A DNA stretch of 64,000 nt from positions 832,001 to 896,000 of the forward strand of contig CBDCFN010000016.1 of NCBI GenBank assembly GCA_965216315.1, written 5' to 3'. This document shows positions 19,273 to 57,755 of this stretch, in pieces. The first letter of the stretch is position 1, and each line of letters starts with the position of its first letter. Position numbers and translations under genes: made by a program. The notes under the pieces are model-generated. The model saw nothing but the letters and a program-made list of their open reading frames with translations, had not been told where the DNA came from and ran no database searches. This stretch comes from a bacterium. GTDB taxonomy: Bacteria; UBA10199; 2-02-FULL-50-16; JAJFLM01.

Positions 19273-19298
19273 CAACTCTGGGCGATCCCCGTCGATAG
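19273..19298 (+). promoter_or_regulatory. Putative alternative-sigma promoter, copy 1
   Basis: CAACT-N13-GTCGATAG immediately 5' of orphan ORF 19301/19313. Confidence 0.6.
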
Positions 19299-19300
19299 AA

Positions 19301-20194
19301 ATGCATCGGGTCATGGTGCTACTCAACCTCCATTCAGTGAAATTTGCTCAGGCCGCGGTGCTTGCGGGCAGTTCGGCCGCGCTGACACTTACCCAGGTCA
19401 TGCACAATATCAATACGCGCCTCGGGCACATCGAGCGGACCCTGGCCACGGAGCCGAATGTCCTGGCCGTAAAGGGGATCCAGGAGGTGGTTGATAAGCA
19501 CATGAGCTTTATCGCGGGGTTTGACCGCCAGCCCATCCATGTAGATGGTGAGATCGAACAAGATATTCGCGTCGATTTAGGCCGTTGGATTGACGGGATG
19601 ATCCAGTTTAACGAATATTTTAAAGTGCAAGGTGATCTTGAAAGGGCGCGGTATGATTTCAGTATTATGCGCAAGCCTTTCGATGAGCTCCAAGTCCGTT
19701 TGCGCGATGCGGATTTTTCGGACGCGATAGTCATAGAAGATGATGACATTGTTGAGGTCGATTCGTCCGAGCATGATATTTATATTTATGAAGAAGGCGA
19801 TGAGGCGGACTTACATCGGGTTGCGGCGGGTCGGCGCCATCATCGGGCCGCACGTGCGCGTTATCTTTTTCCGCAAGAAGTGATTGATTTGCGTCAGTAT
19901 AAAGATCGGGTGACCGTGGAGTATTTAATTGAAAAAATAATTAATCCACGGTTGGCGCTATTGTCAGAGGGGACGCATTTTATCATTGATGTTGAAGTCG
20001 ATCGGCAGACACTGCAAAATATGGCGTGGGCCCTTTGGCAGCGCTATAAATTGTCGGCAACGGCGTTTGAAGATAAGGCACTTATTTTAAGACTTTCCTC
20101 ACAAGGTCAGCAATGTCGCATCTATATTGACTCGACAAGTTCGCGTGGCAACTACCTGACGATGACACCAGAGGCCATTCCGATCCCGGAATAG
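19301..20194 (+). CDS. Hypothetical protein (start may be ATG 19313)
   Basis: 297-aa ORF filling the gap; acidic central tract; no family recognised. Confidence 0.75.
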   Translation: MHRVMVLLNLHSVKFAQAAVLAGSSAALTLTQVMHNINTRLGHIERTLATEPNVLAVKGIQEVVDKHMSFIAGFDRQPIHVDGEIEQDIRVDLGRWIDGMIQFNEYFKVQGDLERARYDFSIMRKPFDELQVRLRDADFSDAIVIEDDDIVEVDSSEHDIYIYEEGDEADLHRVAAGRRHHRAARARYLFPQEVIDLRQYKDRVTVEYLIEKIINPRLALLSEGTHFIIDVEVDRQTLQNMAWALWQRYKLSATAFEDKALILRLSSQGQQCRIYIDSTSSRGNYLTMTPEAIPIPE

Positions 20195-20239
20195 GGCTTT
20201 TCTTGCGAAATTTCGATAATTGACGCGGCGTTCAGGTCA

Positions 20240-20265
20240 CAACGGGAGCGAATCTTATCCGATAA
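20240..20265 (+). promoter_or_regulatory. Putative alternative-sigma promoter, copy 2
   Basis: CAACG-N13-TCCGATAA, followed by an AGGAGG RBS. Confidence 0.62.
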
Positions 20266-20276
20266 GGGCTTAGGAG

Positions 20277-20915
20277 GTGACTGTGATTCTAACCAGTGGA
20301 CTATCGCTTTGCGCACTGCCGGCCGCTATCTGTGCGGCGGCGCCCCCGCAAAATACGACCGTCAATGAGTCAATGAGTGTCGATGATGTACTGAGTGCAA
20401 CGCAGGCCATTGATGCGGGGGCACCTATTGTTAGCCGGTCTGTGCGACACTACTATCGATTGCCGGCAGCGATTGATGAAAGCACCGGAATACTCGCCAA
20501 TGCAATCACGGCCCTGAAAGCCACGCCATCTAATGGGGAAGCTATATTGCGCTTTAGCGTTGGATCGGAGACTCTTGAGACTATCGCGGCCCACTTAAGA
20601 GATGTCTTTAGTATTCGCGCGGGAGAGATCGCGACTCCTTTAAAGGCAATGAGTGCCGGTCTCAACAGGTTATACCTGGATGTCATTAATGACTGGGCGG
20701 CTGCAAATAAGGATTATCCTGCGGTGTCACGGTTTCAGGCTCTCGCTCGACAGGTCGGTGATGAATGGGTATTTCATCTGAAGAATCACGAATTACCATC
20801 GGAGCCAAAGACGCTCGTCTTGCAGGCCTGGGGAGCCTATGACAATCAAAAACTGCTCAATGAGATTAGAATCCAGATTGGTGCTGTATCTCAAGACGCA
20901 GCGAGCCTCAATTAA
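20277..20915 (+). CDS. Hypothetical protein (start may be GTG 20283)
   Basis: 212-aa ORF; AGGAGG at 20272-20277; no family recognised. Confidence 0.72.
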   Translation: MTVILTSGLSLCALPAAICAAAPPQNTTVNESMSVDDVLSATQAIDAGAPIVSRSVRHYYRLPAAIDESTGILANAITALKATPSNGEAILRFSVGSETLETIAAHLRDVFSIRAGEIATPLKAMSAGLNRLYLDVINDWAAANKDYPAVSRFQALARQVGDEWVFHLKNHELPSEPKTLVLQAWGAYDNQKLLNEIRIQIGAVSQDAASLN

Positions 20916-23443: not shown

Positions 23444-23458
23444 GCCTAAAAATGCGTA

Positions 23459-23643: not shown

Positions 23644-23712
23644 CCGCGAAAGTCATACTAAATATTAAAAGATCTATAGTTGATAAAACGACCACAGGGC
23701 CCAAATGTCAAC

Positions 23713-25861: not shown

Positions 25862-25871
25862 AATAGTTGCC

Positions 25872-27345: not shown

Positions 27346-29283
27346 TTAGGCCTTAGGAGGGGTGACGTCAAGGATGGGCAGATAGACCTCAAAAATTGTC
27401 TTGCCCGGTCGACTATCGACACGAACAAAGCCACCTCGTTGGCTGACCAAATGGCGCAAATTGGTTAGGCCGAGGCCTAAGTGGCCGGTCGCCGCTGTAA
27501 ACGAGTAGCGTGGCTTGGTGGTATAAAAAGGGTCGAAAAGGAGATGCCATTGGTCGCGGGGTATTCCGGGGCCGCTATCTTGGACGACAAACTTAACATA
27601 TTCGCCGGGCTGAGCCGCTGAAAAGCTCAAGTTTACTTCCAGCGAAGCGAGCGAATCCGTTGTAATCGTCCGCCGTGAGGTCCGGACCCAGATGCGGCCG
27701 CGATCACCTTCTGGGATGGCTTCGTAGGCATTTTCCAGCATGATGAAGTAAAGCTGCTGAATTTCCTCGACAGGTCCCCTGATTGGAATGGGATTGTCAT
27801 CCAGCTCAAAGGTAAGATCTGCGGCGTATCGGATGCGCTGGGGAACGGCCTCCGGGGTAAGGAGGTCATGTAGATTAAGGGGCGTGCCATCGGTCGATCC
27901 GTCTGTCAGGCCCGGGAGCCTGTTGAAGACTGTCTGAATTTGTTCAAGTTCATGTTTGAGCTCTTCGAGGGTAGTGATTTCAAGTTGTGGCGTGCGCCTC
28001 TCCCCTTGACGTCCCAAGGTGTTTATCTTGTGTTGTAAATCCTCAATGATTTCTAGTAGTGCCCGGCTGACTTGATGCTCGTGGTCGCGAATGACACTTA
28101 AGAAGGATTGGGCGCGATGAACTTGTAATAACTGTTTCTCAGTTTGAACGCGTATGCCCGCATTTGTATAAACGACCATGGCGTATTGTTTGTCTCCGGC
28201 CAAGCTGGGATGAGCCTGAATATCAACTTGGACAGTGCTACCATCTTTGCATATCATTTCTGCACCTCTCCAGTGAAACATGCCGGTGTTAACGAACGCG
28301 TCGATATGCTCCTTTAATTTAGGGCGAGTGGCTTCAGGGAAAAATGTTTCAAGAGGACTCTGAATCATCTCGTCATGCGTGTACCCTAAGAGGCGCTCAA
28401 GTGATTGGCTGCTCAGGATGGCGCGAGGGATCAGTTCGTAATCGGCTGTTTCATCAAGCACGAAGATAGATAGCGGTTGGAAGGAATTCTTGAGTAGCTC
28501 TTGGTAGCGTTGAATTTCTGCAAGGGCGCGTTGTCTTTCCGTTTGATCAAATAGGACATAATAGCCGATGCGTCGCCCTTCACGTCCGAATGGAAGGGTG
28601 GCGACGTGGATGTCGGCCCATAAATAGCTGCCGTCTTCTTTAAGGAGACGGACATTTTCAATGAAGCCGACGCCGTTCGCAACAACTCCCATGATGAATT
28701 CACCAAAACGGGCAAGGTCTGTCGGATGCACGTTCTTGGAGATGGTTTCCATCGACGTCAGATAGCCGGCTTCAAAGCCGGATGTACTGTCGTTGGCCGG
28801 ATTCGTTTCGATTAAGCGAACCATGTCATCGGGTGTTGCGGCCGCTGGGTTTAATTCAAATACACCCATGGGATGAGGAAAAGGCTTGATGACATCTGAC
28901 AGTAAAGAGACGATTTTTTCATATTCGGGATCTGCTGTGCTTTGTTGCGTTGCGTTTCCCCAGCGCCGTTGAAGCAAGCTGTAAAGACGTTTTGTTTCGT
29001 CATCGGCTTGTTCGATGCGGGGTGCTAAGCCGTTGACGACCTGACGCAGAGCCGTCTCAAAACTTACGGTATCATTGTAGGTATCGACGCCGGCATGATT
29101 TTCAACAAGAACATGAATGGGTTGGACGATCGGTGCGAGCACCGCGTCTTGATTCGCGAGTTGAATCGGGTGAGCGAGTCCCCGCAGGAGAACCCCCGCT
29201 GAGGTACCGAGAGTCAAACTCGCATCTGTTACCACGAGTTGTTGGATGACTCCATTGATGATTGGAATATTTGGTACGACCAC
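27346..29283 (-). CDS. PAS-domain histidine-kinase-like protein
   Basis: Two PAS/PAC-like segments (KEDGSYLW, CKDGSTVQV); N box ENAYEA, G1 DSGPGI, F box FDPFYTTK, G2 LGLGL; atypical H box. Start moved to GTG 29283 because the upstream 26 codons contain the promoter motif. Confidence 0.75.
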   Translation of the reverse strand: MVVPNIPIINGVIQQLVVTDASLTLGTSAGVLLRGLAHPIQLANQDAVLAPIVQPIHVLVENHAGVDTYNDTVSFETALRQVVNGLAPRIEQADDETKRLYSLLQRRWGNATQQSTADPEYEKIVSLLSDVIKPFPHPMGVFELNPAAATPDDMVRLIETNPANDSTSGFEAGYLTSMETISKNVHPTDLARFGEFIMGVVANGVGFIENVRLLKEDGSYLWADIHVATLPFGREGRRIGYYVLFDQTERQRALAEIQRYQELLKNSFQPLSIFVLDETADYELIPRAILSSQSLERLLGYTHDEMIQSPLETFFPEATRPKLKEHIDAFVNTGMFHWRGAEMICKDGSTVQVDIQAHPSLAGDKQYAMVVYTNAGIRVQTEKQLLQVHRAQSFLSVIRDHEHQVSRALLEIIEDLQHKINTLGRQGERRTPQLEITTLEELKHELEQIQTVFNRLPGLTDGSTDGTPLNLHDLLTPEAVPQRIRYAADLTFELDDNPIPIRGPVEEIQQLYFIMLENAYEAIPEGDRGRIWVRTSRRTITTDSLASLEVNLSFSAAQPGEYVKFVVQDSGPGIPRDQWHLLFDPFYTTKPRYSFTAATGHLGLGLTNLRHLVSQRGGFVRVDSRPGKTIFEVYLPILDVTPPKA

Positions 29284-29304: not shown

Positions 29305-29330
29305 GCATCGGATAGTTGCCAAAAAGGTTG
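29305..29330 (-). promoter_or_regulatory. Putative alternative-sigma promoter, copy 3
   Basis: Minus strand reads CAACC-N13-TCCGATGC, 21 nt upstream of GTG 29283. Confidence 0.55.
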
Positions 29331-29445
29331 TGGGTTTTATGCCAACGAGGGCTTGTTCCATAACTAATTGATCTAAAATGTGTTTTTGGCCATGTCGGGG
29401 TGATCGTTCTTGCCATCAGCTCGATGCTGTGCTTGGATGCGGCTC

Positions 29446-39771: not shown

Positions 39772-39823
39772 GGGGGATTAGACTTAGCGAATTATGGGCG
39801 CTGGATCAAGTTGCATGGGGACA

Positions 39824-39849
39824 CAACTTTTAAACGCCGGCGCCGATAG
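39824..39849 (+). promoter_or_regulatory. Putative alternative-sigma promoter, copy 4
   Basis: CAACT-N13-GCCGATAG immediately 5' of orphan ORF 39856/39865. Confidence 0.65.
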
Positions 39850-39855: not shown

Positions 39856-40320
39856 ATGCCCTATATGGCCCATATTCCCCTCATGCAGGGTCTCAGCATC
39901 AGTTACGTCGAGGCATTGATGTTTCAGCGTCAAGCCTATACGGCGGCGGCGCAGGCTAAACTGGGGCCTTTTCTGACGGCCGCCGGCAGTACGCTGGAGC
40001 GATTCCAGCGTGATGTCATTCAGGCTCCGGGGGCTATTTTGATGAAAAAAAGCGATTTGGAGGCGATGACGGCGTTTACGGTTATGACCGCAACACCAGC
40101 TGATTTATATGCTTGGAGTGATAGTCTCGGTTGTGACTGGCTGGCGCAGATTCATTTGAATGCGAGTTTTCACTCCACGGCCCACTATGCGCGCGCCTTT
40201 AACGAACGCCATCGATCCGCTGATTTTCATATCGCTGAGCCGGAATATTTTCCGTGGATTGATTTTTCGCTACAATTATCGCCGTCAATATTGGTGGGTA
40301 TCGACGCGGGCCTGCATTAA
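39856..40320 (+). CDS. Hypothetical protein (start may be ATG 39865)
   Basis: 154-aa ORF, no family recognised. Confidence 0.65.
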   Translation: MPYMAHIPLMQGLSISYVEALMFQRQAYTAAAQAKLGPFLTAAGSTLERFQRDVIQAPGAILMKKSDLEAMTAFTVMTATPADLYAWSDSLGCDWLAQIHLNASFHSTAHYARAFNERHRSADFHIAEPEYFPWIDFSLQLSPSILVGIDAGLH

Positions 40321-40453: not shown

Positions 40454-40825
40454 ATGGCAGCACACAAGAGCGAGATAGAATTTGATACATTGTTAGGGAC
40501 TGCACGTTTTGTGGCGGATTTCCGTATTCCTGCCGCTGCAAGAGAAGTTATTGAAAAAAGCATCGCAAAGGCTTTTGAGGATTATATTCCCGCGAGTGAA
40601 GTGCAGAAGAAAATCAAAAAAGATATTGATTGGGTTGATACGCCCAGAGGGGCACTGGTTGTATTTATGACGGCTCAAGGATTGACTCAAAAGAAACTCG
40701 CTAAAAAAACCGGGATTAATCAACCGAATATATCTGCGATGGTTAATGGGCGCCGCCCTATTACAGTGAAGACCGCGAAGTTGTTAGGGAAGGCGTTTGG
40801 GGTGAGTCATAAGTTGTTTCTTTGA
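40454..40825 (+). CDS. Xre/HigA-like helix-turn-helix protein
   Basis: C-terminal GLTQKKLAKKTGINQPNISAMVNGRRPITVKTAKLLGKAF. Confidence 0.85.
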   Translation: MAAHKSEIEFDTLLGTARFVADFRIPAAAREVIEKSIAKAFEDYIPASEVQKKIKKDIDWVDTPRGALVVFMTAQGLTQKKLAKKTGINQPNISAMVNGRRPITVKTAKLLGKAFGVSHKLFL

Positions 40826-42862: not shown

Positions 42863-44427
42863 GCGGGTTGCATGCGGTTCCTCGCTAAATGAACTGCAAG
42901 AATGAGCATTTGAATCCCAAATATTGTCCCTAGAAAGATCGTTCCGCCCTCGCTGAACCCATAGCTGTGGAGGCCAGCGGCGAGAATGTAATTGACGCCA
43001 AACCAGGCCATCAAAATCCCTAAAAAGCTCAGCGCGACGAGCGGAATGAAACGTCGGAATGGGATCCAGCCCGAGAAGCGCCCATGGAGAATGGCGACGT
43101 ACATTAAGAGGGCGATGAGTGACCAGGTTTCTTTGGGGTCCCAGCCCCAGAAGCGTCCCCAACTGTAGTCCGCCCAGATTCCTCCGAGGATGATGCCGGC
43201 GGCTAACAAGATGACACCGACTTTGAGGCAGACATAGCAAAGGTTGCTGATGCGCCGGGTAAAAACTTGCGGTACGTCGCCAAAACTCGAGCGGATAAGA
43301 TAATAGTTGGCCATGAACCAGCTCAATGCAAAGACTGCGTAGCTGATCGTAATCGTTGTAACATGCGTTGAAAGCCAAAAATTATCGCGCAGGACGGGGA
43401 CGAGAGGTTTGATTTTAGGGTCGAGCATGCCATGGGCAAAGGTCATCATAAACAGACAGCTCAAATTAAGTCCGAGCCCGACCAAGACAAAGATTTTTTC
43501 GCGGCGCCAATAGGCGAGAATTGTTGCAATCAGGAGGCCGCCGACGCCGACCCACATTACGGTTTCGTACATATTCGTGACAGGTGCACGCTGGGAGATC
43601 ATGACGCGATAAACGATGGCCACTATTTCAATGATGAACGTGATGGCGAGTCCGGTGATGACAGCCGGGTGATTGATGCGTCGGCACGCGGCTGTTACGA
43701 TGAGTGTCAAGAGCGCTGCTAAGATCGCCCAATGAAATAAGCGAAGTCGCTCATAAGTCAATTCAGTCAGATGAGCATTGTCAACTTTGGCGGCATAATC
43801 GGCACCCATCCTGAGAAGAATCGGGGTCATCTTTGCAACGCCGTTTTGGTTTTCCTTAGACAGTGCGGCAAGTTCTCGTAACGGAATCCAAATAACCTTG
43901 TCAGCACTGACCTGGGCCCCGTCATGAAAAAAAGGCGCTTTCCAGTTATTGCCGTTGATGATGTCGTGGTAGAGCCGCGTTTTTTGAATGACTGCGCCAA
44001 TATCCTTAGCGAATGGTGATTTGTCTTTTTTCTCCGTCTTGAGAATAGAAAGCTGCGCTTCGAGTTCAGGGATCTTGGCGGTGATGTCAGTGTAGGTAAT
44101 CTGATTGCTGTCGATCTTGAGCAAGGCTTGGGTCTTGATATGATCCACGCGGATGGGCAGCGCGGGGGCTTTCTGCTGCGCCGGATCGAGGGAGCTTAAA
44201 CTAAGTCGGCAATACAACTCCATCGCCGATTGGCCCTCCCATTTTGATTTGCCGTAGATAAATTTAATGGTTTCCTTCGCATGAACCTCGAGGGGTTTAA
44301 CGCGCCCGCCTGCCAGAATAGGCAGGGCCTCCAGCTCTTTGGGGCAATCTTCCGCGGCAAGTGCCGGGGTGGCACAAAAAACTACCGTGATGAAGAGGAC
44401 GGTTTTAATGAGCAATTTGTGGGTCAC
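42859..44427 (-). CDS. ccsA: System II cytochrome c synthase CcsA with large periplasmic N-domain
   Basis: WWD domain WADYSWGRFWGWDPKETW, WLSTHV, GLHSY; GTGA overlap with the upstream gene; GGAG RBS. Confidence 0.9.
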   Translation of the reverse strand: MTHKLLIKTVLFITVVFCATPALAAEDCPKELEALPILAGGRVKPLEVHAKETIKFIYGKSKWEGQSAMELYCRLSLSSLDPAQQKAPALPIRVDHIKTQALLKIDSNQITYTDITAKIPELEAQLSILKTEKKDKSPFAKDIGAVIQKTRLYHDIINGNNWKAPFFHDGAQVSADKVIWIPLRELAALSKENQNGVAKMTPILLRMGADYAAKVDNAHLTELTYERLRLFHWAILAALLTLIVTAACRRINHPAVITGLAITFIIEIVAIVYRVMISQRAPVTNMYETVMWVGVGGLLIATILAYWRREKIFVLVGLGLNLSCLFMMTFAHGMLDPKIKPLVPVLRDNFWLSTHVTTITISYAVFALSWFMANYYLIRSSFGDVPQVFTRRISNLCYVCLKVGVILLAAGIILGGIWADYSWGRFWGWDPKETWSLIALLMYVAILHGRFSGWIPFRRFIPLVALSFLGILMAWFGVNYILAAGLHSYGFSEGGTIFLGTIFGIQMLILAVHLARNRMQPA

Positions 44428-46088
44428 GCTTCGCTTCTCCTTCGTTTGGCGCGAATCCTGTGATGAATAAGGATACCGCCAATCAATAATATGCAACCTA
44501 AGTATTTGATCGGTCGCCCGGGATCTCTATTGACAGACAGCACCGAGGCATATGATTTGCCGTCGCCTAAGGCAAAATAAGAGGCTTGATACAGGGTAAA
44601 GCCCCCTTTTTTAAGGGGATTATTCATATAGATATGGGCCTGAGTCGTTTCACTGGCGTCACTGACTTTGACGAAACTTTCGTAGCTAGCGGCATCCATC
44701 GTGCCTGGATTGGTGGCCATTTTGAATTCTTCGAGTTCAATCTGAAAGGGAAGTTGATGGACCCGGTCACCCAACATAATTTGGAAGCTGTCACCGTTTG
44801 CCGCCTCAAATGTCTTTGGGCTCTGGTTGTCGACCCAAAAAGAGTGACTCGTCGCTTGGCTTTCACGATCCGTAATCTTGATGAGAGCAGCGCGATGTCG
44901 CTGCGCTTGGCTGCCATCCGGGGGCTCATAAGACCACTCCAGATAAGGGAGCTTGTTGTCGATAATGCGCGTCAGTGTCATTTCCAGTCCCATCCAGGGG
45001 AGGCTGTAACCCCTGAAGAGCTCCTCGTCTTCGAATGTCCACTGGGTTCCTTTGCCATAAGCCAGCCGCTTATCTCGAAAAAATACAATGTTCGGTGATT
45101 GACGCCAGGTCTCCAACGGAACGAGATTCATGTCAGAATCTTCGTCAATGCGAATTTCTTCAGTGATGGGTTGGGCAATCATCTGCGGAAAGAAATTGTA
45201 TGTTGTTCCGTCGCGCGTTATCACGACTTTTTGATAAGGTTCCTCTTGCTCGGTTTTAAATTGCAGGCCTTGCTGCTTAATTCCTTGTAATGAGATTGCC
45301 GGGAGCACGAGGCAGCGTTGGTTATCCTGGTAGAGATACTGGGCCTGAGTGTCTTTGATAGCGCGGGCAAAGCACTGACTATCAATTCTCATCAAGAGGG
45401 TGATGCTCAAAGGCCCTAACTTTTTCTTGTCATCGCCGCGATTGTGATTGGAGACCTCAATTTTCTGCTGCATATTGGCGCCGGCGAGTTTGGCCCAGAT
45501 AAGACGTTTGGCCGGCTTGCCCGCGGGGTTGTCTCGCCAGAGCTGTCGGCCGGTTGCAAACGGGATATAGCGTTCGATGGAGATGTCGTAGTTGGCAAGG
45601 TTGATGTATGGGGTGTCCCCAAGTTCAATCTCTTTTGTCGCACGTGGTAGATCTGAGGCGTAGCGCAATGATGATTGTTTGGCATTGTCAAAGTAGTGGA
45701 CGTAGATTCGAGGCTCATTGATGAGGACATTGCCATTTGCCTTGCCCGGCATGAGTTCGAGCGAACCGTCGATCCCGAAGAGGGCGGTCACGGCGCTACC
45801 AATCAGTATGGTGAGAAGCCCCGCGTGAATAATATAAAAGCCGGTCAAGCGCACTCGATAGGGGAGGCGAACGAGGGCCGCAAACAGGATATTTAAAAAG
45901 AGGAAAATTTCTGTAATGATGAAAGGCGTAGAAAGGTAGACGGCGTCCTTAGCAAATGCCGCCCCATATCGAGATTCGGTGATGGTCCCCCAGATCATCA
46001 GAACCATCAGCGACAAAATCACGCAGACCGCCAGTTTGAGCGAGGCGAGAAATTTAACGACTTCATTTTTACAGAATTTCTTCCACAT
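44424..46088 (-). CDS. Cytochrome c biogenesis protein ResB/CcsB
   Basis: ASLKLAV, IIHAGL, IYMNNPL..GFTLYQASY, SVNRDPG; coupled to ccsA. Start trimmed to ATG 46088. Confidence 0.85.
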   Translation of the reverse strand: MWKKFCKNEVVKFLASLKLAVCVILSLMVLMIWGTITESRYGAAFAKDAVYLSTPFIITEIFLFLNILFAALVRLPYRVRLTGFYIIHAGLLTILIGSAVTALFGIDGSLELMPGKANGNVLINEPRIYVHYFDNAKQSSLRYASDLPRATKEIELGDTPYINLANYDISIERYIPFATGRQLWRDNPAGKPAKRLIWAKLAGANMQQKIEVSNHNRGDDKKKLGPLSITLLMRIDSQCFARAIKDTQAQYLYQDNQRCLVLPAISLQGIKQQGLQFKTEQEEPYQKVVITRDGTTYNFFPQMIAQPITEEIRIDEDSDMNLVPLETWRQSPNIVFFRDKRLAYGKGTQWTFEDEELFRGYSLPWMGLEMTLTRIIDNKLPYLEWSYEPPDGSQAQRHRAALIKITDRESQATSHSFWVDNQSPKTFEAANGDSFQIMLGDRVHQLPFQIELEEFKMATNPGTMDAASYESFVKVSDASETTQAHIYMNNPLKKGGFTLYQASYFALGDGKSYASVLSVNRDPGRPIKYLGCILLIGGILIHHRIRAKRRRSEA

Positions 46089-46145
46089 TTCTTTATTTTT
46101 CCACGGGTTCCCGATCGCGCCAATGATCTCATTACATTGGTGCTC

Positions 46146-46159
46146 ATGACGAATATCAT
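46146..46159. promoter_or_regulatory. Possible Crp/Fnr-family site
   Basis: ATGAC-GAAT-ATCAT in the divergent ccsB/HAO intergenic region; resembles the site at 53317. Confidence 0.35.
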
Positions 46160-46257
46160 ATCTGTCAGAGATATCAATCATGGCTGTAAGACCCTTATTT
46201 AAGGTATATAGATGGGATCTATAGGCGCAATTTATTTAATCTTTTTGAGGAGGCATC

Positions 46258-47712
46258 ATGAAGCCGGTTAAATTTAAGAGCCCTTTTCTACTTGGTCTCG
46301 TTGCAGCGGTAGTGATTCCGCTGATGGCGGCGCATGCGGGCAGTCTCCCCACTGAACTCAGCGCCGAGAGCAAGAAATGCGCAACCTGTCACCAGCAAGA
46401 AAATGATTCCATCTACCAACAGTGGGGCGAGTCAAAGCACTATCGGGCGAATGTTGGTTGTTTTGAGTGTCACGAGGCTCAAGCGGGAGATAAGGATGCC
46501 TTTAGTCATTATGGGCAGACAATCGCGACGATTGTTTCTCCTCAGGACTGCGCGAGTTGCCATGAAAAAGAAGTGAAGGAATTTACTGAAAGTCATCATG
46601 CTAAGGCCGGGCGGATTATGGGCTCATTGGATAATCTCCTCGCCGAAGTCGTTGAAGGGAATACCGGTATGAAGACAGCGGCCTTTCCCCATGGGATCTC
46701 CGCGGCGGCGGTCAATGGCTGCTGGCAGTGTCATGGTTCTGAAATCAAAGTTCTCAAGGGCGGAAAACTGGATCCTGCGACCTGGCCCAACTCGGGAATG
46801 GGGCGGATCAACCCGGATGGGTCCGAAGGTTCCTGTTCGGCCTGTCATTCACGCCACAGTTTTTCAGTCGCTCAGGCCCGCAATCCTGAAAATTGCGGTA
46901 AATGCCATATGGGCCCCGATCACCCACAACTTGAGATCTATAATGAATCAAAACACGGTATTGCCTACCAGGCGCACAAAGCCGATTTAAAGATGGATAG
47001 CGCTAAATGGGTTGTCGGCGAGGACTATAGCGCCGCCCCAACTTGCGCGACCTGTCATATGTCGGCGACCAAAAACCAGCCGGTCACTCATGATGTCGGA
47101 CTCAGGTTGTCGTGGAATAATCGGCCTCCTAAGTCGGTTCGACCCGAAGTCTCCGATGCTAAACTGGGGCTCAAGACAGCGAGCATCCCGTGGACGAAAC
47201 GACGTGCCAACATGAAGGACGTTTGTACTTCATGTCACAATAAGGATTTTACGGATAATTTTTACTTTCAGTATGATGAGCTTATCAAGCTGTACAATGA
47301 TAAGTTTGCAGACCCCGGGTTGAAGCTGATGGCTGCGGCCAAGCCCTTAATGAACAAGCCAAAATTTGCGAGTGACATTGATTTTATCTGGTTCGAGATC
47401 TGGCATCATGAAGGGCGCCGTGCTCGTCATGGCGCCTCGATGATGGGGCCTGACTATACGCATTGGCACGGAACCTATGAAATTGCGAAGCATTTTTATG
47501 TAAAACTGATTCCAGCGTTAGAAGAGCTTGCGAAGGATAATCTCAGTTCCAAGGATGCAACCACAGTTGCTGCCGCGAAGAAGTTGCAGGCAACGATCAG
47601 CGAGGTGCTCAACTCGGATGATCATAAGTGGTATTTGGACAAGGAAGATCCCAAGGTCAAGGCGGCCCGCAAGAAACGTCAGACTGAATTTAAGAAGCGC
47701 TACGGGAAGTAA
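46258..47712 (+). CDS. Octaheme c-type cytochrome, hydroxylamine oxidoreductase (HAO) family, copy 1
   Basis: 8 CxxCH (CATCH, CFECH, CASCH, CWQCH, CSACH, CGKCH, CATCH, CTSCH); GPDH catalytic Asp-His pair; WHHEGRRAR..MMGPDYTHWHG; Sec signal ending AHA; GAGGAGG RBS. Confidence 0.9.
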   Translation: MKPVKFKSPFLLGLVAAVVIPLMAAHAGSLPTELSAESKKCATCHQQENDSIYQQWGESKHYRANVGCFECHEAQAGDKDAFSHYGQTIATIVSPQDCASCHEKEVKEFTESHHAKAGRIMGSLDNLLAEVVEGNTGMKTAAFPHGISAAAVNGCWQCHGSEIKVLKGGKLDPATWPNSGMGRINPDGSEGSCSACHSRHSFSVAQARNPENCGKCHMGPDHPQLEIYNESKHGIAYQAHKADLKMDSAKWVVGEDYSAAPTCATCHMSATKNQPVTHDVGLRLSWNNRPPKSVRPEVSDAKLGLKTASIPWTKRRANMKDVCTSCHNKDFTDNFYFQYDELIKLYNDKFADPGLKLMAAAKPLMNKPKFASDIDFIWFEIWHHEGRRARHGASMMGPDYTHWHGTYEIAKHFYVKLIPALEELAKDNLSSKDATTVAAAKKLQATISEVLNSDDHKWYLDKEDPKVKAARKKRQTEFKKRYGK

Positions 47713-47728
47713 TTAAACGAGGTGATAG

Positions 47729-49213
47729 ATGAGATTAGTAATGATATCGGGAGCTGTTTTACTGCTCATCCCGTTCATGTTGGCCTGTTCCGGTGAAGCC
47801 GGTTCGCATGGTTTTTCCTCTTCCAAGTATGCGGTCAATACGTCGACCTTGCCGGCAGAACTGACTGACGAATCGCAAGCCTGCATTTCCTGCCATATGA
47901 AGGAAAACCCAAGCATCTACCAGCAATGGGGTGGTTCCAAGCACTACCGTGCCAATGTCGGCTGTTATGAGTGTCATCGCGCCAATAGCTCGGATCCTGA
48001 TGCCTTTGATCATTATGGGATGAGTATCTCCATTCTCGTGTCTCCTCAGGATTGTGCGCAATGTCATGCCAAGGAAGTCAAAGAATTTACATCGAGTCAT
48101 CACGCCAAAGCGGGCCGCATTATGGGCTCACTCGACAACCTTCTCGCTGAAGTCGTTGAAGGGAATAATAAAATGGTGACGGAGGGGTTCCCGGACGGGA
48201 TCTCGGCAGCTGCGGTTAACGGCTGTTGGCAGTGTCACGGGTCTGAGATCAAGGTGCTCAAGAATGGCAAATTGGATCCGGCGACCTGGCCGAATTCCGG
48301 TATGGGGCGGATTAACCCGGATGGCTCGGAAGGATCTTGTTCCGCTTGTCACTCACGGCATGAATTTTCCGTTGCACAGGCGCGCGGCCCTGAGAATTGC
48401 GGTAAGTGTCATATGGGTCCGGATCATCCGCAGATAGAGGCCTTTAATGAGTCAAAACACGGCATCGCTTTTTATGCCCACCGCGATAAGATGAACTTAG
48501 ATAATCCGAAATGGATTGTCGGCCAAGATTATACTGCGGCACCGACTTGTGCGACCTGTCATATGTCGGCGACCAAAGATCTGCCGGTGACCCATGATGT
48601 CGGACTTCGCATCTCTTGGAACAATCGACCGCCAAAATCAGTTCGACCTGAGTTGTCGGACGCCAAGCTGGGGCTTCCAACCGCCAAGGTAAAATGGACA
48701 GAGCGTCGTGATAATATGAAGAAAGTTTGTGTATCCTGCCACAATCAACAATTCACTGATAATTTTTATGTTCAATACGATGCCTTGATCGATCTTTATA
48801 ATACTAAGTTTGCGGATCCGGGTCTCAAGTTGATGAAGGCGGCCAAGCCGCTGCTTAAGCCCGTCAAATTCAGTAATGAGTTAGACTTTATCTGGTTTGA
48901 ATTATGGCATCATGAAGGGCGGCGAGCCCGTCATGGTGCTTCAATGATGGCGCCCGATATTACGCACTGGCACGGGACCTACGAGATCGCGAAACATTTC
49001 TATGAGAAGTTTATTCCTAAGCTGCAGAAGTTGGCTAAGAAGAATCTCGATAATAAAGATGCCGGCAAGGCAAAGGCCGCCAAAGAACTCAAAGAACTCA
49101 TTGTCACGGTACTCAACTCAGATGATCATAAATGGTTTATTGGGCAGGAGAGTCCGGAGGCAAAGAGAAAAAGAGAGCAGCGGCGAGAAGAATTTAAGAA
49201 ACGGTATAAGTAG
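47729..49213 (+). CDS. Octaheme HAO-family cytochrome, copy 2 (probable lipoprotein)
   Basis: 8 CxxCH; collinear paralog of copy 1; lipobox-like MLAC; MMAPDITHWHG. Confidence 0.9.
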   Translation: MRLVMISGAVLLLIPFMLACSGEAGSHGFSSSKYAVNTSTLPAELTDESQACISCHMKENPSIYQQWGGSKHYRANVGCYECHRANSSDPDAFDHYGMSISILVSPQDCAQCHAKEVKEFTSSHHAKAGRIMGSLDNLLAEVVEGNNKMVTEGFPDGISAAAVNGCWQCHGSEIKVLKNGKLDPATWPNSGMGRINPDGSEGSCSACHSRHEFSVAQARGPENCGKCHMGPDHPQIEAFNESKHGIAFYAHRDKMNLDNPKWIVGQDYTAAPTCATCHMSATKDLPVTHDVGLRISWNNRPPKSVRPELSDAKLGLPTAKVKWTERRDNMKKVCVSCHNQQFTDNFYVQYDALIDLYNTKFADPGLKLMKAAKPLLKPVKFSNELDFIWFELWHHEGRRARHGASMMAPDITHWHGTYEIAKHFYEKFIPKLQKLAKKNLDNKDAGKAKAAKELKELIVTVLNSDDHKWFIGQESPEAKRKREQRREEFKKRYK

Positions 49214-49218
49214 ATCTT

Positions 49219-49743
49219 ATGTTTAGACTACGTGTTGCTACGGTATTTTTTGTAGGATTTGTGCTGGCAGGTTTGTTGCTATTAATTTCATCTCAAACGC
49301 GCGCGATCGAGCTGGATCCTAATGTTGAGATTGATGTAAGGGGGATGCGTCTGGAGATGTTCCCTTGTTCTAAATGTCATAATCTAATCGGAAAAAGTGA
49401 AGGGCGTAAAGAAGCGGCGCATCGCAATGTCCATGTCCGTCACGGGGAGATCAATAAAAATTGTCTCAATTGTCACAATGGCGATAATATGGATACCTTG
49501 CATTTACTGAATTCAAAGAATGCCCTGCCATTCGAGAAGTCTTATCAAATTTGTGGGCAGTGCCATGGCAATATCTTGAATGAGTGGAATCTTGGAATTC
49601 ATGGTCAGCAGACGGGGAGTTGGAACGGCAAAAAACTGCGGCAAACCTGCTCGGCATGCCACAATCCGCACCAACCAAAATTTAAGGACATGAAGCCTCT
49701 TCCGGCGCCGCAACATCCGCATGAGAGGAGGGCAAGACGTTGA
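49219..49743 (+). CDS. Tetraheme c-type cytochrome
   Basis: CSKCH, CLNCH, CGQCH, CSACH; hydrophobic N-terminal signal/anchor. Confidence 0.88.
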   Translation: MFRLRVATVFFVGFVLAGLLLLISSQTRAIELDPNVEIDVRGMRLEMFPCSKCHNLIGKSEGRKEAAHRNVHVRHGEINKNCLNCHNGDNMDTLHLLNSKNALPFEKSYQICGQCHGNILNEWNLGIHGQQTGSWNGKKLRQTCSACHNPHQPKFKDMKPLPAPQHPHERRARR

Positions 49744-50684
49744 TACAGTGGACTCGAACCGATAAACGCGTGAGCGCCAAACTTAAGAAGCAGCTGCGGT
49801 CGCGAGTCAGTCGTCGCAATGTTCTCAAAGGATTATTTCTGGGAGCGGCGGCCGCGATGGTGACACCGGCAAAGACGGCCAAAGCTTTTTCTTGGGGCGA
49901 ATTTTTTCAGCGTCATTATAAAGAGCTAAGCCCGGAAGATAAGAAGAAGGTATTTGCGCGCATCGAAACGGAAACAAAAGAGCGCTATGGTGTCAATGTA
50001 GAGATCACTGATCCGCCTGCTATGGATGGTGTCGAGTTTGTTTATTGTCTTAATCTGTCCAAGTGTAATGGCAATAGAAAGTGCGTTGAGGCCTGCGTCA
50101 AAGAGAATAATCAATCGCGCGACCCGCAGATCCAATATATCAAGGTCCTTGAGATGCCGAAGGGTTCCATGAACTTAGAAGCAGGGGACCAATACTATGA
50201 ACATGATAAGGTTCCTCAGCAGGACAAGTATTATCTGCCGGTTCAGTGCCAGCAATGTCGTAATCCTCCCTGCACGAAGGTGTGCCCGGTTGAAGCGACC
50301 TGGCAGGAAAAAGACGGAATTGTGGTTATTGATTATAACTGGTGCATTGGTTGTCGTTATTGTGAGGCGGCCTGTCCCTATGAGGCGCGACGCTTTAATT
50401 TTACGACGCCGACAATTGCGCCATCGGAGATCAATCCTAAGCAAGGCTATCTATCGAATCGCGTCCGCCCCAAAGGGGTCGTGGAGAAATGTACGTTTTG
50501 CTTGCAAAGAACCCGGAAGGGCCAGTATCCGGCCTGTTTGGAGGCGTGTCCCACGGGTGCGCGCAAGTTCGGTAATATCCTCGATCCCAAGAGTGAGGTG
50601 AGGGCGATCCTCGAGAACAAGCGCGTCTTTGTCTTGAAAGAAGACTTGGGAACGATGCCGCGCTTTTATTACTTTTTTGATTAG
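49740..50684 (+). CDS. Tat-exported polyferredoxin (NrfC/DsrO-like)
   Basis: SRRNVLK twin-arginine motif; CQQCRNPPCTKVCP, CIGCRYCEAACP, CTFC..PACLEACP; AGGAGG before the TTG start. Confidence 0.88.
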   Translation: MIQWTRTDKRVSAKLKKQLRSRVSRRNVLKGLFLGAAAAMVTPAKTAKAFSWGEFFQRHYKELSPEDKKKVFARIETETKERYGVNVEITDPPAMDGVEFVYCLNLSKCNGNRKCVEACVKENNQSRDPQIQYIKVLEMPKGSMNLEAGDQYYEHDKVPQQDKYYLPVQCQQCRNPPCTKVCPVEATWQEKDGIVVIDYNWCIGCRYCEAACPYEARRFNFTTPTIAPSEINPKQGYLSNRVRPKGVVEKCTFCLQRTRKGQYPACLEACPTGARKFGNILDPKSEVRAILENKRVFVLKEDLGTMPRFYYFFD

Positions 50685-50692
50685 GAAGAGCT

Positions 50693-51916
50693 GTGATTAA
50701 ATATTTACACTTTTGTAAAGCGATGACCCTTGAGGTCCTGAGAGGATCAAAGCGCTACTATGCATGGATGGGATTTCTCGCGGTGATCATCCTTATCGGG
50801 GTCGTGGGCTATATTCATCAGTTAAATGAGGGGCTTATTGTCACGAATATGACGGACCAGGTGTCATGGGGCGCCTATATTGCGAATTTTACCTATATCG
50901 TCGGGCTTGCTGCAGCCTCGGTCATGCTAGTAATCCCGGCCTATTTTTATAAAATTAAAGAACTGATCCATATCACTTTTGTCGGTAAGTTGTTTGCGGT
51001 GGCTTCGATCATTATGTGCCTCTTGTTTGTTGTCGTTGATATGGGGCGCCCGGATCGTTTTTGGCACATTATGCCCTTTGTCGGCCGCATGAATTTTCCA
51101 TATTCTATCCTTGCCTGGGACGTCATTGTATTGTCGGGTTATCTGTTGCTCAATCTGCATATTCCCGGGTATCTTTTATATAAGAAATATATTGGTCACC
51201 CCCCAACCGACAATTACTATAAACCCTTTGTTTATATTGCCGTCTTCTGGGCAATCAGCATTCACACCGTGACCGCCTTCTTATACGCCGGCCTGGGCGG
51301 ACGGCCTTTTTGGAATTCTGCAATTGTGGCGCCCCGTTTTATTGCATCTGCCTTTGCGGTCGGGCCGTGTTTTCTGCTGATCGCGTTGCAGTTTATCAGA
51401 CGATACACCCATCTTAAGGTGGAGAATTACATCTACACCGTGCTTAAACGGATTATTGCGGTTGCGATGATTATCAATCTCTTTTTGCTTGGTTCGGAGG
51501 TCTTTAAGGAGTTTTATACGCAGTCGGCCCATACCGCAGCGGCGAAATATCTCTTTTTTGGGTTGCATGGGCACAACATGCTGGTTCCCTACATCTGGAT
51601 TGCGGTGGTTTTTAATGTCATCGCGACAATCATTTTTGCCAGTCGCAAACTGAGCCGCAAAATGAGACTCGTCAATGTCGCTTGCATTATGGCGATTGTG
51701 GGCATCTGGATTGAAAAGGGGATGGGTTTATTGGTTCCGGGCTTCATTCCCTCTCCGTTGGGCGATATTGTTGAGTACACCCCATCAATAACGGAGATTT
51801 CGGTGTGTGCCGGGATTTGGGCACTGGGGTTCTTCCTCTTTACGCTCTTCCTTAAGGCAGCGATCCCTATAGAAACGGGTGAGCTGCGGCTACATAAAAA
51901 AACGGCAACCCGGTGA
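50693..51916 (+). CDS. NrfD/PsrC/DsrP-family membrane quinol-interacting subunit
   Basis: About 10 TM segments; VSWGAYIANF, VDMGRPDRF, WAISIHTVTAF, PRFIASAF. Confidence 0.88.
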   Translation: MIKYLHFCKAMTLEVLRGSKRYYAWMGFLAVIILIGVVGYIHQLNEGLIVTNMTDQVSWGAYIANFTYIVGLAAASVMLVIPAYFYKIKELIHITFVGKLFAVASIIMCLLFVVVDMGRPDRFWHIMPFVGRMNFPYSILAWDVIVLSGYLLLNLHIPGYLLYKKYIGHPPTDNYYKPFVYIAVFWAISIHTVTAFLYAGLGGRPFWNSAIVAPRFIASAFAVGPCFLLIALQFIRRYTHLKVENYIYTVLKRIIAVAMIINLFLLGSEVFKEFYTQSAHTAAAKYLFFGLHGHNMLVPYIWIAVVFNVIATIIFASRKLSRKMRLVNVACIMAIVGIWIEKGMGLLVPGFIPSPLGDIVEYTPSITEISVCAGIWALGFFLFTLFLKAAIPIETGELRLHKKTATR

Positions 51917-55103: not shown

Positions 55104-56605
55104 GTACAGCCTCCAAGGTCGCGACGGATTCCTTCGGCGACACGATCAGCCAACGCCATGACAGTCAGGTAGGGATTGACTTCGGCAGCGGCAGGAAAGA
55201 GGCTGGCATCCGCCACGTAGATATCGTTATGGCCGTGGAGCTTCCCCCAGGGATTGGTGACGGAGCTTTGTTTGTCTTCGCCCATGCGACATCCCCCCAT
55301 GAGATGGCCAGCAGAAATGGAAGCTTGCCCCAATTTGAATAGCTTGCTTTGAATGAGCTTGTCCACCTCATTGGCCTGGGTGGAGCGAATAAAGAATGGA
55401 TCCATCGCCGGGGTGTGGACCTCTTCGGCTCCCGCAGCAAACAAGATCCGGGCTCCGGCGCGGCAGCCTTGTGTGAGGGCCTCAATGGTTTTTTTGCTGA
55501 AGCGGTAGTTTACCTGGGGATTGCCGTTTTGATCAAAACCGATGTGGTTATGTTCCTCGGCTTCATCAATCGCGAGCAAGAGGATCATTTGGAGGCTGTC
55601 AAAGTGGTCCGTATATTCGTCGAGTTCATGACCATAGGCGGCAACGCTTTTGGCGAAGGTGAAAGGGAAGTACATGCAAGTTTCCAACAAGAAGCGGTTT
55701 GAGTCGACAAAGTCATCGCAATAATAGCTCTTGGGGTGGCCGGCCGTGTTTTTGATCGCACGCGGGTGGCGTCCAGCCAGCATAAGAGCCGGGTGACAAG
55801 TGAAGAAATGTCCCAGCGCCGGAGATAAGTCGGAGCCATAAGAGCGGTGCAGTATAGCGGGTGAATGAATGGCTCCCGCTGCAACGACAATTTTATGGGC
55901 GTGAATGCGATAAGCGCCGGGGGCTAACGGAGAGGCATCGAGTCCGTGTTCGGGCGGAACGACTTCGGCGATGACGTCGTGATCGTCGATTTTGCGAACG
56001 CGGCAGAAGGGAATGACCTCAACGCCTAGCTCTTCCGCGCGGGGAATCTGGACAACGGCTGTTCCCTGTTTCGCGTGGACGGCACACCCAAGATTGCAAG
56101 TTCCGAGTCCCTGACAGTCTCTGACATTAACCGGGAACTGTTGGGCGTTCCACTTGAGCTGTTCACAGCCTTTAACAAAGAGACGATTATTGTCGTTGAT
56201 TTCATCCGGCGGAAGTAAATGTACGTTGTTTTCTTCACGGTATTTTTGAGTCCGTGGTTCCATGTCCGCGTTGTCAACGCCGGGGATGTTCCATTTTCGA
56301 AGCACGGTGTCGGGGATGCCGAGACTTGTTCCCGTGTAGACAGTGGTTGAGCCGCCGACGGCATGTGCAAGTGCCATTGTCATGTCCTGGCTCGTCGTTG
56401 GATAGGCACCCTTGTGAAAATAATACTTTTCGGCCATTTCTAATTCACGACGTGTATTGTCTTGAGGGCGAAATCGTCCTCCCCATTCGAGCAAGGCGAT
56501 TCGGGTTCCCTGCTGACACAAAGGAGCGAGTTCCTTGGCGACAGTCCCGCCACCGGCTCCGGAGCCGATGATCACAATGTCGTATTGAAGGCTTTGTTCA
56601 GTCAT
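55100..56605 (-). CDS. GMC-family oxidoreductase
   Basis: GSGAGGG FAD motif, VGGSTT, CQGLGTCNLGC, HLMGGCRMG, VNPYLT. Confidence 0.88.
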   Translation of the reverse strand: MTEQSLQYDIVIIGSGAGGGTVAKELAPLCQQGTRIALLEWGGRFRPQDNTRRELEMAEKYYFHKGAYPTTSQDMTMALAHAVGGSTTVYTGTSLGIPDTVLRKWNIPGVDNADMEPRTQKYREENNVHLLPPDEINDNNRLFVKGCEQLKWNAQQFPVNVRDCQGLGTCNLGCAVHAKQGTAVVQIPRAEELGVEVIPFCRVRKIDDHDVIAEVVPPEHGLDASPLAPGAYRIHAHKIVVAAGAIHSPAILHRSYGSDLSPALGHFFTCHPALMLAGRHPRAIKNTAGHPKSYYCDDFVDSNRFLLETCMYFPFTFAKSVAAYGHELDEYTDHFDSLQMILLLAIDEAEEHNHIGFDQNGNPQVNYRFSKKTIEALTQGCRAGARILFAAGAEEVHTPAMDPFFIRSTQANEVDKLIQSKLFKLGQASISAGHLMGGCRMGEDKQSSVTNPWGKLHGHNDIYVADASLFPAAAEVNPYLTVMALADRVAEGIRRDLGGCT

Positions 56606-57000
56606 TTTATGGGAGGGATAAGATAATGAAGGTCCGCATAGACCGAACTCTGGCCATAAACCCCTAGCTTGGCGAGAGTGCTGAGCCCCCAGAACCCCTT
56701 GCGCATCAGACCGATTGGCGAATTGTAAAATTGATGGAGCAGGGCCTCCTGTCGTGCGGGATTAAGACCCTTAAAGAGGTGGCCGGTCATGCATAATGAC
56801 CAGATATCGACAATAGTGAAAAAAAGGCTTAGTTTTTTCAGTTGTTGTGGTGGCTGTGAACGGAGAATGCGGTTGATGAGCTCAAGTGATTGTTTTCGCT
56901 GAGCGGCGGTAAAGTGCCGAGCTCGCGGAACGAGGCAGGCCTGCAGTGCTTCAAAACGTCGGGCGCGCTTTCCCTGTAAAAAGGGAGGTTTTGTTGCCAC
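56602..57000 (-). CDS. Small partner of the GMC enzyme (gluconate 2-dehydrogenase subunit 3-like)
   Basis: 132 aa, ATGA-coupled to the GMC gene; resembles the N-terminal extension of the GMC at 61798. Confidence 0.55.
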   Translation of the reverse strand: MATKPPFLQGKRARRFEALQACLVPRARHFTAAQRKQSLELINRILRSQPPQQLKKLSLFFTIVDIWSLCMTGHLFKGLNPARQEALLHQFYNSPIGLMRKGFWGLSTLAKLGVYGQSSVYADLHYLIPPIK

Positions 57001-57031
57001 GCTCGGGCCTTAGCCTGCCGGTTGTTCCGTG

Positions 57032-57652
57032 TCAATTCGAATGATAGCGATAGTGGCCTGTTATCGGATAGGTGAAGAGGATATCTTCTATTTGCGGGCC
57101 TTTCCCAATGTTGTGGACGATCAGTGGACGTTTGCCATCCGCAGAGTAGCGGTCGATGACGAGACCAATATGAGGAAGGTTGCCGGGAATCGTCCAGGTG
57201 ACTAGGTCCCCCGGCCGGTACGTCTCAGGTTTTTGGTTTGCCAGCAATTTTTGCCCCTTGCGACTGAAGAAGACCTGGAGGTTGGGAACGCGACGATGAT
57301 CGATATTGGTATCCGGTTGTCGCAGTCCCCACTTCTTCGGATAGAGGGCAAAATGAGCTTTCATGTCTTGATGGACTTCTTTCTGCAGGTCAATGCCGAC
57401 AGCCCGGTAAGCGCGGACAATGACATCCGTACAGACCCCGATGTTGTCCGGGACATCGCCTCCCGGATAGGGGATTTTCCGGTAACTACCGTCATAGCGC
57501 ACCTGATGCTGGGTTCGTTCCGTTGCCGCGGTGATCAACTGACGCACGAAGTCGTTTGTCGGGGCAGCCGTCACTTGCGCCCCGATGGGGGCGGCCACCG
57601 CCATTATAAAGAGGAGAATCGTCGAGACCTGATTTTTTATGAGCCAACGCAT
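57032..57652 (-). CDS. DUF1287 (YijF-like) exported protein
   Basis: YPGGDVP..GVCTDVIVRAYR, DTNIDHRRVPNL, PHIG, HNIG. Confidence 0.88.
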   Translation of the reverse strand: MRWLIKNQVSTILLFIMAVAAPIGAQVTAAPTNDFVRQLITAATERTQHQVRYDGSYRKIPYPGGDVPDNIGVCTDVIVRAYRAVGIDLQKEVHQDMKAHFALYPKKWGLRQPDTNIDHRRVPNLQVFFSRKGQKLLANQKPETYRPGDLVTWTIPGNLPHIGLVIDRYSADGKRPLIVHNIGKGPQIEDILFTYPITGHYRYHSN

Positions 57653-57729
57653 GAGAGTTGTCAGATAACATATCGAAATATATTAATATTTCAATAATAT
57701 TTAGTAGTCATTATAATAGGAGGAAAGGG

Positions 57730-57755
57730 CAACTTTTGAGGGGGCAGACCGAAGA
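57730..57755 (+). promoter_or_regulatory. Putative alternative-sigma promoter, copy 6 (weaker -10)
   Basis: CAACT-N13-ACCGAAGA upstream of the HlyIII-family gene. Confidence 0.4.

Follow-up and report, generated by a model that had tools for sequence, protein, structure and literature searches.

Introduction

Promoters of the sigma factor FliA (sigma-28) have been described in Pseudomonas aeruginosa, where the fliC promoter reads TAAAGCTC-N11-GCCGATAA and residue Q228 contacts positions -36/-35 in the solved structure (PDB 9wsf/9wsm); Q228 is needed for recognition of the -35 box, and its loss cripples transcription (PMC12784957). In the flagellated Bdellovibrio bacteriovorus, FliA reads TTAAG-N16-CCGATA promoters and drives an attack-phase regulon (PMC3627812). 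The extracytoplasmic function (ECF) sigma factor HrpL of Pseudomonas syringae, which has a known plant host, recognizes the hrp box (PMC8228185). A further group of systems, the Myxo-group non-flagellar type III secretion system (T3SS) along with the needleless T3SS* of Myxococcus xanthus, has been reported from deltaproteobacteria (PMC3459982, PMC12075869, PMC12428579); the word sigma is absent from the main text of these three papers. Here, we describe a bipartite motif that recurs 5' of genes in a 64,000-nucleotide stretch of bacterial DNA (contig CBDCFN010000016.1, positions 832,001 to 896,000; G000:C16:832001-896000), referred to as the window. The window belongs to a 2.96-Mb genome that is 98.3% complete (G000, the source genome). 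The motif probably serves as promoter for an alternative sigma factor that derives from FliA and whose gene lies in a non-flagellar T3SS cluster of the same genome.

The six promoter sites of the window

An earlier note on this DNA had claimed six copies of a CAAC-type motif; all six are present where claimed, on the coding strand and 5' of a gene. Spacer classes (N15 to N17) refer to the distance between CAAC and the -10 core, and scores to a genome-trained matrix. The sites and their target genes are:

19271..19298, + strand: promoter site, N15 class (CAAC-N15-TCGAT), score 18.4
19313..20194, + strand: target gene without Pfam family; uncharged leader with VLAGSS; reading frame open from 19301, start at 19313 inferred
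20238..20265, + strand: promoter site, N15 class, score 13.1
20283..20915, + strand: target gene without Pfam family, 210 residues, uncharged leader
29305..29332, - strand: promoter site, N15 class, score 17.9
27346..29283, - strand: target gene, kinase-like (PAS and HATPase_c, no HisKA match), uncharged N-terminal leader
39822..39849, + strand: promoter site, N15 class, score 23.3; ATG 6 nt past the -10 box (leaderless geometry)
39856..40320, + strand: target gene without Pfam family, 154 residues
40367..40395, + strand: promoter site, N16 class, score 15.1
40454..40825, + strand: target gene, HTH_3 (XRE-type) regulator
57728..57755, + strand: promoter site, N15 class, score 19.6, -10 variant CCGAAGA
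57820..58473, + strand: target gene, HlyIII-family membrane protein

The first gene probably starts at 19313, because its first ATG (19301) lies only 2 nt 3' of the -10 box. Matched loosely, as in the earlier note, the motif occurs 17 times in the window (12 matches at N13, five at N14), whereas 40 third-order simulations gave 6.45 matches on average and never more than 11. With the matrix, 14 window sites score at least 11; eight are intragenic, and the six intergenic ones are exactly those named. The earlier note had placed its four best copies before three orphan genes and the kinase. By matrix score the best four are 39822, 57728, 19271 and 29332; 57728, the second best, precedes the HlyIII-family gene and not an orphan, and 20238 is the weakest of the six. 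TTGACA-N17 promoters had also been assigned to rpoN and pccB; that of rpoN holds (TTGACA-N17-TATCAT), and pccB has a TTGACA followed after 17 nt by TAGAAA, a weaker -10 box.

The motif across the source genome

The refined consensus consists of M-R-CAAC-TTTT, a gap of 10 and R-CCGATAA, i.e. RCAACTTT-N11-RCCGATAA. CAAC-N15-CCGATA is found 60 times in the genome, compared with 3-26 copies at each of 24 other spacings tried, and TAAA combined with CCGATA gave no spacing peak in the source genome. The wider pattern CAAC-N15-CCGAW has 178 sites; 105 of them fall between genes, non-coding DNA making up 14% of the genome, and 94 of the 178 lie sense-upstream within 150 nt of a start, compared with 25 antisense. 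Genes were called by our own hexamer-based script (2,354 genes), and some starts are therefore wrong. Matrix scores of at least 12 were obtained for 275 of 2346 upstream regions and for 7-14 in each of five dinucleotide shuffles, a figure somewhat flattered because the matrix was trained on the same regions; the fixed-pattern counts are unaffected. These upstream sites fall into gap classes 10 (214), 11 (30), 12 (30) and 9 (1). The genome-wide counts bear out the enrichment 5' of genes and the strand and spacing bias that had been proposed from the window. Counting sites within 200 nt upstream, the motif stands before 270 genes, a regulon of roughly 11% of all genes.

The motif also behaves like a core promoter. 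Past the octamer of 289 strong intergenic sites, ATGs opening reading frames of at least 100 residues number 15, 25, 12, 13 and 16 at offsets 6 to 10; elsewhere counts are 0-4 (offsets 0-5) and mostly 2-6 (offsets 11-39), rising once more, to 8 and 11, at offsets 22-23. The P. aeruginosa sigma-28 octamer is reported to span -15 to -8 (PMC12784957), so that offset 7 corresponds to +1. The ATG peak at offset 7 would thus coincide with the sigma-28 start position, and the genes found there read as leaderless transcripts. Of 54 genes at most 11 nt from their site, 11 have a Shine-Dalgarno-like motif, compared with 127 of 216 located farther away. Sigma-70-type patterns are scarce at target genes (3/270 vs 75/2084 non-targets).

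A FliA-like sigma gene in a T3SS cluster

Two features of the same contig, both outside the window, are central to the proposed regulon:

G000:C16:350583-351410: proposed FliA-like sigma gene, between sctJ and sctK/L/N-like genes
G000:C16:339083-372364: T3SS cluster

The sigma inventory of the source genome comprises RpoD, an RpoH-like factor, two ECF factors, RpoN and a single FliA/WhiG-like protein, which is one of five sigma-70-family genes. The latter has regions 2 and 4, its nearest solved relatives are WhiG and FliA, and it matches FliA/WhiG models best, not ECF models. TIGR02479 is its best NCBIfam match, yet at 133.1 bits the score stays below the cut-off of 189.6. The P. aeruginosa FliA residues D66, R80, R97 and S224 are kept (by alignment, chain offset 5), and the -10-reading residues D66, R80 and R97 are conserved solely in this one of the genome's sigma factors; the -10 box of the motif equals the sigma-28 consensus GCCGATAA. 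In region 4.2, the helix reads KSWTSR where FliA has ESRVSQ, with Q228 replaced by R. The sigma-28-family factor with altered -35 specificity that the earlier note had postulated thus has a counterpart in the genome. In a quick tree of 52 rows, 34 KSW-type rows fall on one side (Shimodaira-Hasegawa-like approximate likelihood ratio test, 98), apart from 16 canonical FliA; the careful search was incomplete and carried a long-branch warning. The FliA-like factor very probably reads the motif.

The surrounding cluster encodes homologues of SctV, D, J, L, N, O, Q, R and S, FliG-, FliK- and FliO-like genes and SycD-type chaperones, the latter adjoining large helical proteins. SctN and SctS score above cut-off and the other Sct proteins are best or near-best matches, SctV having been scanned in part. 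The core genes sctV, J, L, N, Q, R, S and D lie together without flagellum-specific genes. An SctT-like gene, outside the profile scan, is also present, and no SctU match was found among the 35 cluster proteins. Searches of the 98.3% complete genome for flagellin, rod proteins, FlgM and a Tad/PilT-type ATPase gave no match. Seven sense motif sites lie in the cluster, namely before sctV, before the small gene g0741 (N16), before g0744 (N17), which heads the gene run containing the sigma gene, and before four large downstream genes. The product of g0741 is a weak needle candidate: its Atlas cluster is 11% T3SS_needle_F at low recognition, and its structural model has a pLDDT (predicted local distance difference test) of 54.

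Directly upstream of the sigma gene, most class loci contain a gene of 105-125 residues; in the source genome it occupies C16:350010-350369. Twenty-one of these small proteins align poorly (8-17% identity), with no Pfam family (two tested) and no named Atlas cluster. By position and by analogy with FlgM, this gene is a positional candidate for an exported anti-sigma factor. Separately, another cluster gene (L095:3524-4669:-) has weak TolB_N/FlgO-like and tetratricopeptide repeat (TPR) matches, and might be an outer-membrane-associated part in a cluster without a secretin.

Conservation and the flagellin control

The sigma factor is present in 61 of 61 genomes of the class at 56-100% identity; these genomes are kin and not independent. 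Each contains 11-83 copies of RCAAC-N15-CCGATA (median 30), compared with 0-6 at N18, and all 30 sigma loci examined combine the KSW helix with T3SS-cluster neighbours. The g0741 orthologue has a site in front of it in 8 of 8 relatives (six identified by BLAST or alignment, two by position), and so does the g0744 orthologue in 5 of 8 (one by position), always with an N17 spacer.

Flagellin is encoded in 7 of the 61 class genomes. The five flagellated relatives tested each have a second, canonical FliA that scores above the TIGR02479 cut-off and has an ESR[VI]SQ helix. Flagellar FliA proteins of relatives score 208-231 and sigma orthologues 129-147. All seven flagellin upstream regions contain T-AAG-.TT, about 11 nt and TCCGT, and score at most 6.5 with the CAAC matrix. 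Canonical TAAA-N15-GCCGATA sites show no clear excess in four of the five flagellated relatives, the flagellin promoters having the TCCGT -10 box instead. The flagellar FliA of the relatives has DVLPR in region 2 instead of DWVPR, which fits this changed -10 box. The flagellin promoters (L359-L365) are thus read here as those of a second sigma-28 variant with an altered -10 element. The strongest indirect link between sigma factor and motif is that, within single genomes, a TAAAG-type box and flagellin accompany the canonical ESR[VI]SQ helix, and RCAAC and the T3SS accompany the KSW helix.

Beyond these relatives, 50 of 80 named genomes were scanned for strict sites. Five that encode a close sigma orthologue have 17-50 sites (four are apparently class genomes already counted), one Polyangiales metagenome-assembled genome has 18, and the 44 others, among them 18 outgroup genomes with canonical FliA, have 0-5.

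Related sigma factors extend into the myxobacteria. In the Polyangiales (order of G091), a homologue is found in 53 of 61 genomes, with a KSW or RSW helix in all 27 examined. Both the sigma factor and an SctN-like ATPase occur in 51 genomes and neither in six, with two and two discordant; some of the ATPases may be flagellar. The sigma gene's downstream T3SS neighbour has a homologue nearby in 11 of 15 selected myxobacterial loci, and in five of those 11 a site lies just past the sigma stop codon. Two further observations concern single genomes. In G149, a cluster of sites (L342-L343, G149:C6:20001-60000) precedes short repeated genes that look toxin-antitoxin-like by eye. In the 4-Mb myxobacterial genome G140, sites occur together with a TadA-family ATPase and a prepilin-peptidase-like gene (L326, G140:C1:900001-920000).

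Target genes, spacer classes and leaders

Pfam scans at E<=1e-6 covered 255 of the 270 targets, with the six window targets scanned separately and nine outside the scans. No Pfam family was assigned to 177 of the 255, compared with 29 of 110 random non-targets from the same tiles (p=2e-14). The targets are thus enriched in genes without a Pfam family, yet 78 of 255 have a Pfam match and conserved genes are included. Enzymes among the matched targets include three patatins, a T4-type lysozyme, two SLT enzymes, one M23 enzyme and RtcB. Signalling and related domains include RelA/SpoT, GGDEF, adenylate/guanylate cyclase, histidine and protein kinases and a macro domain. Other targets are lipoproteins, subtilases, TSP3-repeat proteins and cofactor enzymes. 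No ankyrin, LRR, F-box or U-box match was found among the 255 targets at the same threshold, which weakly disfavours a eukaryotic host.

Protein type follows spacer class, as judged by crude rules for Sec signals, lipoproteins and charge. N15 targets have at most one charged residue at positions 2-26 in 91 of 212 cases (about 43%), compared with 139 of 2084 non-targets, and are poor in Sec-like signals (18/212 vs 403/2084). N17 targets look Sec-dependent in 15 of 28 cases and lipoprotein-like in 9 of 28. Of 270 targets, 36 have the tripeptide LAS within residues 1-40, compared with 45 of 2084 non-targets; 37 cases use 27 different codon strings, a diversity that marks LAS as a protein-level signal and rules out a mobile DNA cassette as the source of the leaders. 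From their composition, it appears slightly more probable than the converse that the uncharged, S/T/A/L-rich leaders are T3SS signals and that the targets include T3SS cargo. Uncharged leaders occur in 4/10 and 4/9 targets of two genomes of the same family, 0/8 in the same order and 4/43 in a distant genome, with starts guessed by script, and the leader is thus a family trait, not a class trait.

Myristoylation-type N-termini were considered as a sign of a eukaryotic host. Glycine at position 2 is found in 27 of 270 targets and 120 of 2084 non-targets (p=0.011), and MG with an early cysteine in 9/270 and 15/2084; MGxxx[ST] is not enriched. The signal was set aside because it comes partly from one paralogue family.

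Several individual loci are also worth recording. A 2,577-residue target with an uncharged ILAAS leader (L176:1-7734:-; G000:C16:1632121-1639854) combines biotin carboxylase, biotin carrier, ACC central region, carboxyltransferase and C-terminal biotin ligase domains; its best PDB matches are bacterial carboxylases, and its domain content reads as that of a self-biotinylating carboxylase. A 3,854-residue target with an LLAAG leader (L141:1-11565:+; G000:C15:370007-381571) resembles fatty acid or polyketide synthases; acyltransferase matches fall in two stretches and a MaoC dehydratase domain is present, but there is no ketosynthase match. A third target (L147:1-2997:-; G000:C16:91474-94470) fuses a ResIII/DEAD helicase to an RpoD-like sigma-70 region 4. 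L192-L193 (G000:C16:2159181-2196937) is a tandem array of more than a dozen orphans, most of them preceded by a separate high-scoring promoter; five are paralogues, of which three begin with MGC[DE]LYGAS. Two loci of the window complete the list: an AcrB-family transporter split into two open reading frames of 368 and 643 residues (33133-36188, + strand; model positions 1-353 and 379-1020), either a broken gene or an assembly error, and at 42859-51916 a pair of multihaem cytochromes accompanied by NrfC/NrfD-type partners and genes for cytochrome c assembly.

Proposed mechanism and alternative explanations

We propose that region 2 of the KSW-type sigma factor still reads the sigma-28 -10 box (GCCGATAA), while region 4.2, changed from ESRVSQ to KSWTSR, would read RCAAC in place of FliA's TAAAG in the same geometry. 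Most likely, the factor would act as a master switch, turning on its own apparatus-gene run first and then surface proteins and scattered targets. Apparatus operons, including that of the sigma gene, and many Sec-exported proteins and lipoproteins would be transcribed mostly from N17 promoters, which would imply positive autoregulation. About 210 scattered genes would be transcribed from N15 promoters, some as leaderless messages. Those N15 targets of the source genome that have an uncharged leader and no Sec signal (about 43%) would be candidate T3SS cargo, and the whole would form a contact-phase programme. The life-stage or predatory programme of the earlier note is likewise something we infer.

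Several observations weigh against this proposal, in its promoter part or in its cargo part. Antisense upstream regions score at least 12 in 102 of 2346 cases, which is probably explained by divergent gene pairs. The largest changes of the -35 box are at -34, -33 and -30, unlike the Q228 contacts. Among seven outgroup genomes with a KSW-type sigma factor, one has many strict sites (18) and the others 0-4. In the Polyangiales, only five of 61 genomes have at least 20 strict sites and 18 have none, and most sigma loci have no sct neighbour within 1.5 kb. G149 has nine sites in one cluster, and neither the sigma factor nor SctN was found there. The T3SS cluster has no secretin, the one strong secretin of the genome lying in a type II secretion operon, and g0741, the weak needle candidate, has no match in Pfam, PDB profiles or folds (Foldseek). 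The 78 targets with a Pfam match include the housekeeping genes SMC, UvrA, BioB and PanD. Uncharged leaders are infrequent beyond the family, as given above, and in the distant genome with 4/43 the leaderless ATG peak is weak too.

The alternative that survives best, which we place somewhat below an even chance, shares the promoter step and differs on cargo alone: the same sigma factor and promoter would drive a general life-stage programme in which the T3SS takes its place among many members, and most orphans would not be its substrates but proteins of the surface, periplasm or cytoplasm. It accommodates the lipoproteins, subtilases, TSP3-repeat proteins, SMC, UvrA and cofactor enzymes among the targets, the often Sec-type or lipoprotein-type targets of G023 and G140 with few uncharged leaders, and the many myxobacterial sigma loci without an adjoining sct gene. 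It also has a precedent in Bdellovibrio, where FliA drives 92 of 140 attack-phase promoters (PMC3627812). Less easily accommodated are the scarcity of Sec-like signals and the abundance of uncharged leaders in the N15 class, the protein-level LAS signal and the T3SS linkage of the sigma gene in all 30 class loci.

It is improbable that another sigma factor (the RpoH-like one or one of the two ECF factors) reads the motif and that the FliA-like gene is incidental. In its favour, strict sites are missing from some genomes with a KSW-type factor, and the G149 sites lack a detected sigma gene. Set against this are the sigma-28-consensus -10 box, whose reading residues only the FliA-like protein conserves, the maintenance of the motif in the T3SS cluster of eight relatives, its position immediately after the sigma gene in several myxobacteria, and an E. 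coli RpoH-type pattern, which occurs in 0 of 270 targets. That the motif is an operator of a DNA-binding regulator or a mobile-cassette remnant, as the 14 DUF4423 paralogues of the source genome (five of them regulators in the regulon) and the short repeated genes behind the G149 sites might suggest, is very improbable for a non-palindromic, strand-polar, bipartite element with an unconserved spacer, a fixed phase to leaderless ATGs, few sigma-70-type patterns at its genes and diverse leader codons.

As to the partner of a T3SS-centred contact programme, the cell-wall hydrolases and bacterial signalling domains among the targets, where ankyrin, LRR and ubiquitin-ligase domains are missing, lean towards bacteria as the target cell. 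The SycD-type chaperones beside large helical proteins lean towards a translocon; in known systems, translocons serve eukaryotic targets (PMC3459982). A more far-reaching version, speculative and rather unlikely, would have this uncultured lineage live on bacteria as a contact-dependent parasite or predator. The two-tier programme of its sigma factor (N17 for machine and surface, N15 for cargo) would be started by export of the small upstream anti-sigma factor, which frees the sigma factor, and would send about 90 leader-tagged proteins into the partner cell, including histidine kinases, GGDEF proteins, a cyclase, a protein kinase and whole lipid-synthesis enzymes. If this were true, the same promoter would point to the cargo of myxobacterial T3SSs.

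The significance of the system lies in several points. The insulated pair of paralogues in single genomes makes sigma specificity directly testable by helix swap, and a deep-branching T3SS is tied to a master sigma factor. The promoter yields a list of about 270 co-regulated, mostly unknown genes, as hrp boxes did for P. syringae. The system also offers a way to learn how an entire uncultured class of small-genome deltaproteobacteria lives and, possibly, what cargo myxobacterial T3SSs carry.

Comparison with known systems

No description of this regulon or sigma factor was found in searches of an open-access library, subscription papers and supplements (e.g. myxobacterial T3SS gene lists) being outside the search. 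The KSW type is apparently an undescribed sigma-28 subfamily with a recoded -35 box. With the P. aeruginosa system (PMC12784957) it shares the -10 element, equivalents of D66, R80, R97 and S224, and the geometry of the fliC promoter. It differs in its RCAAC -35 box, in the KSWTSR helix with R for Q228, in the absence of a flagellum and of an FlgM match, and in the location of the sigma gene inside a non-flagellar T3SS. Bdellovibrio offers, as far as reported (PMC3627812), another sigma-28 that is a global regulator of many non-flagellar or uncharacterised genes and reads a CCGATA -10 box, but here the -35 box is recoded and the factor T3SS-linked. Like the Myxo-group systems, with which it is linked by related sigma factors across Myxococcota, the cluster is deltaproteobacterial, includes FliG/FliM/FliO-like parts and lacks a secretin (PMC3459982, PMC12075869, PMC12428579). 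Unlike them, it has SycD-type chaperones beside large helical proteins, a weak needle-like candidate and no Tad/Kil ATPase. The hrp box is described as one alternative-sigma motif for T3SS apparatus, dispersed effectors and unrelated genes (PMC8228185), a logic repeated here with a sigma-28 offshoot in place of an ECF factor, about 270 targets and spacer classes. Taken together, the system is sigma-28-like in promoter logic and HrpL-like in regulon logic, and is set apart from FliA and WhiG by cut-off, helix, -35 box and context.

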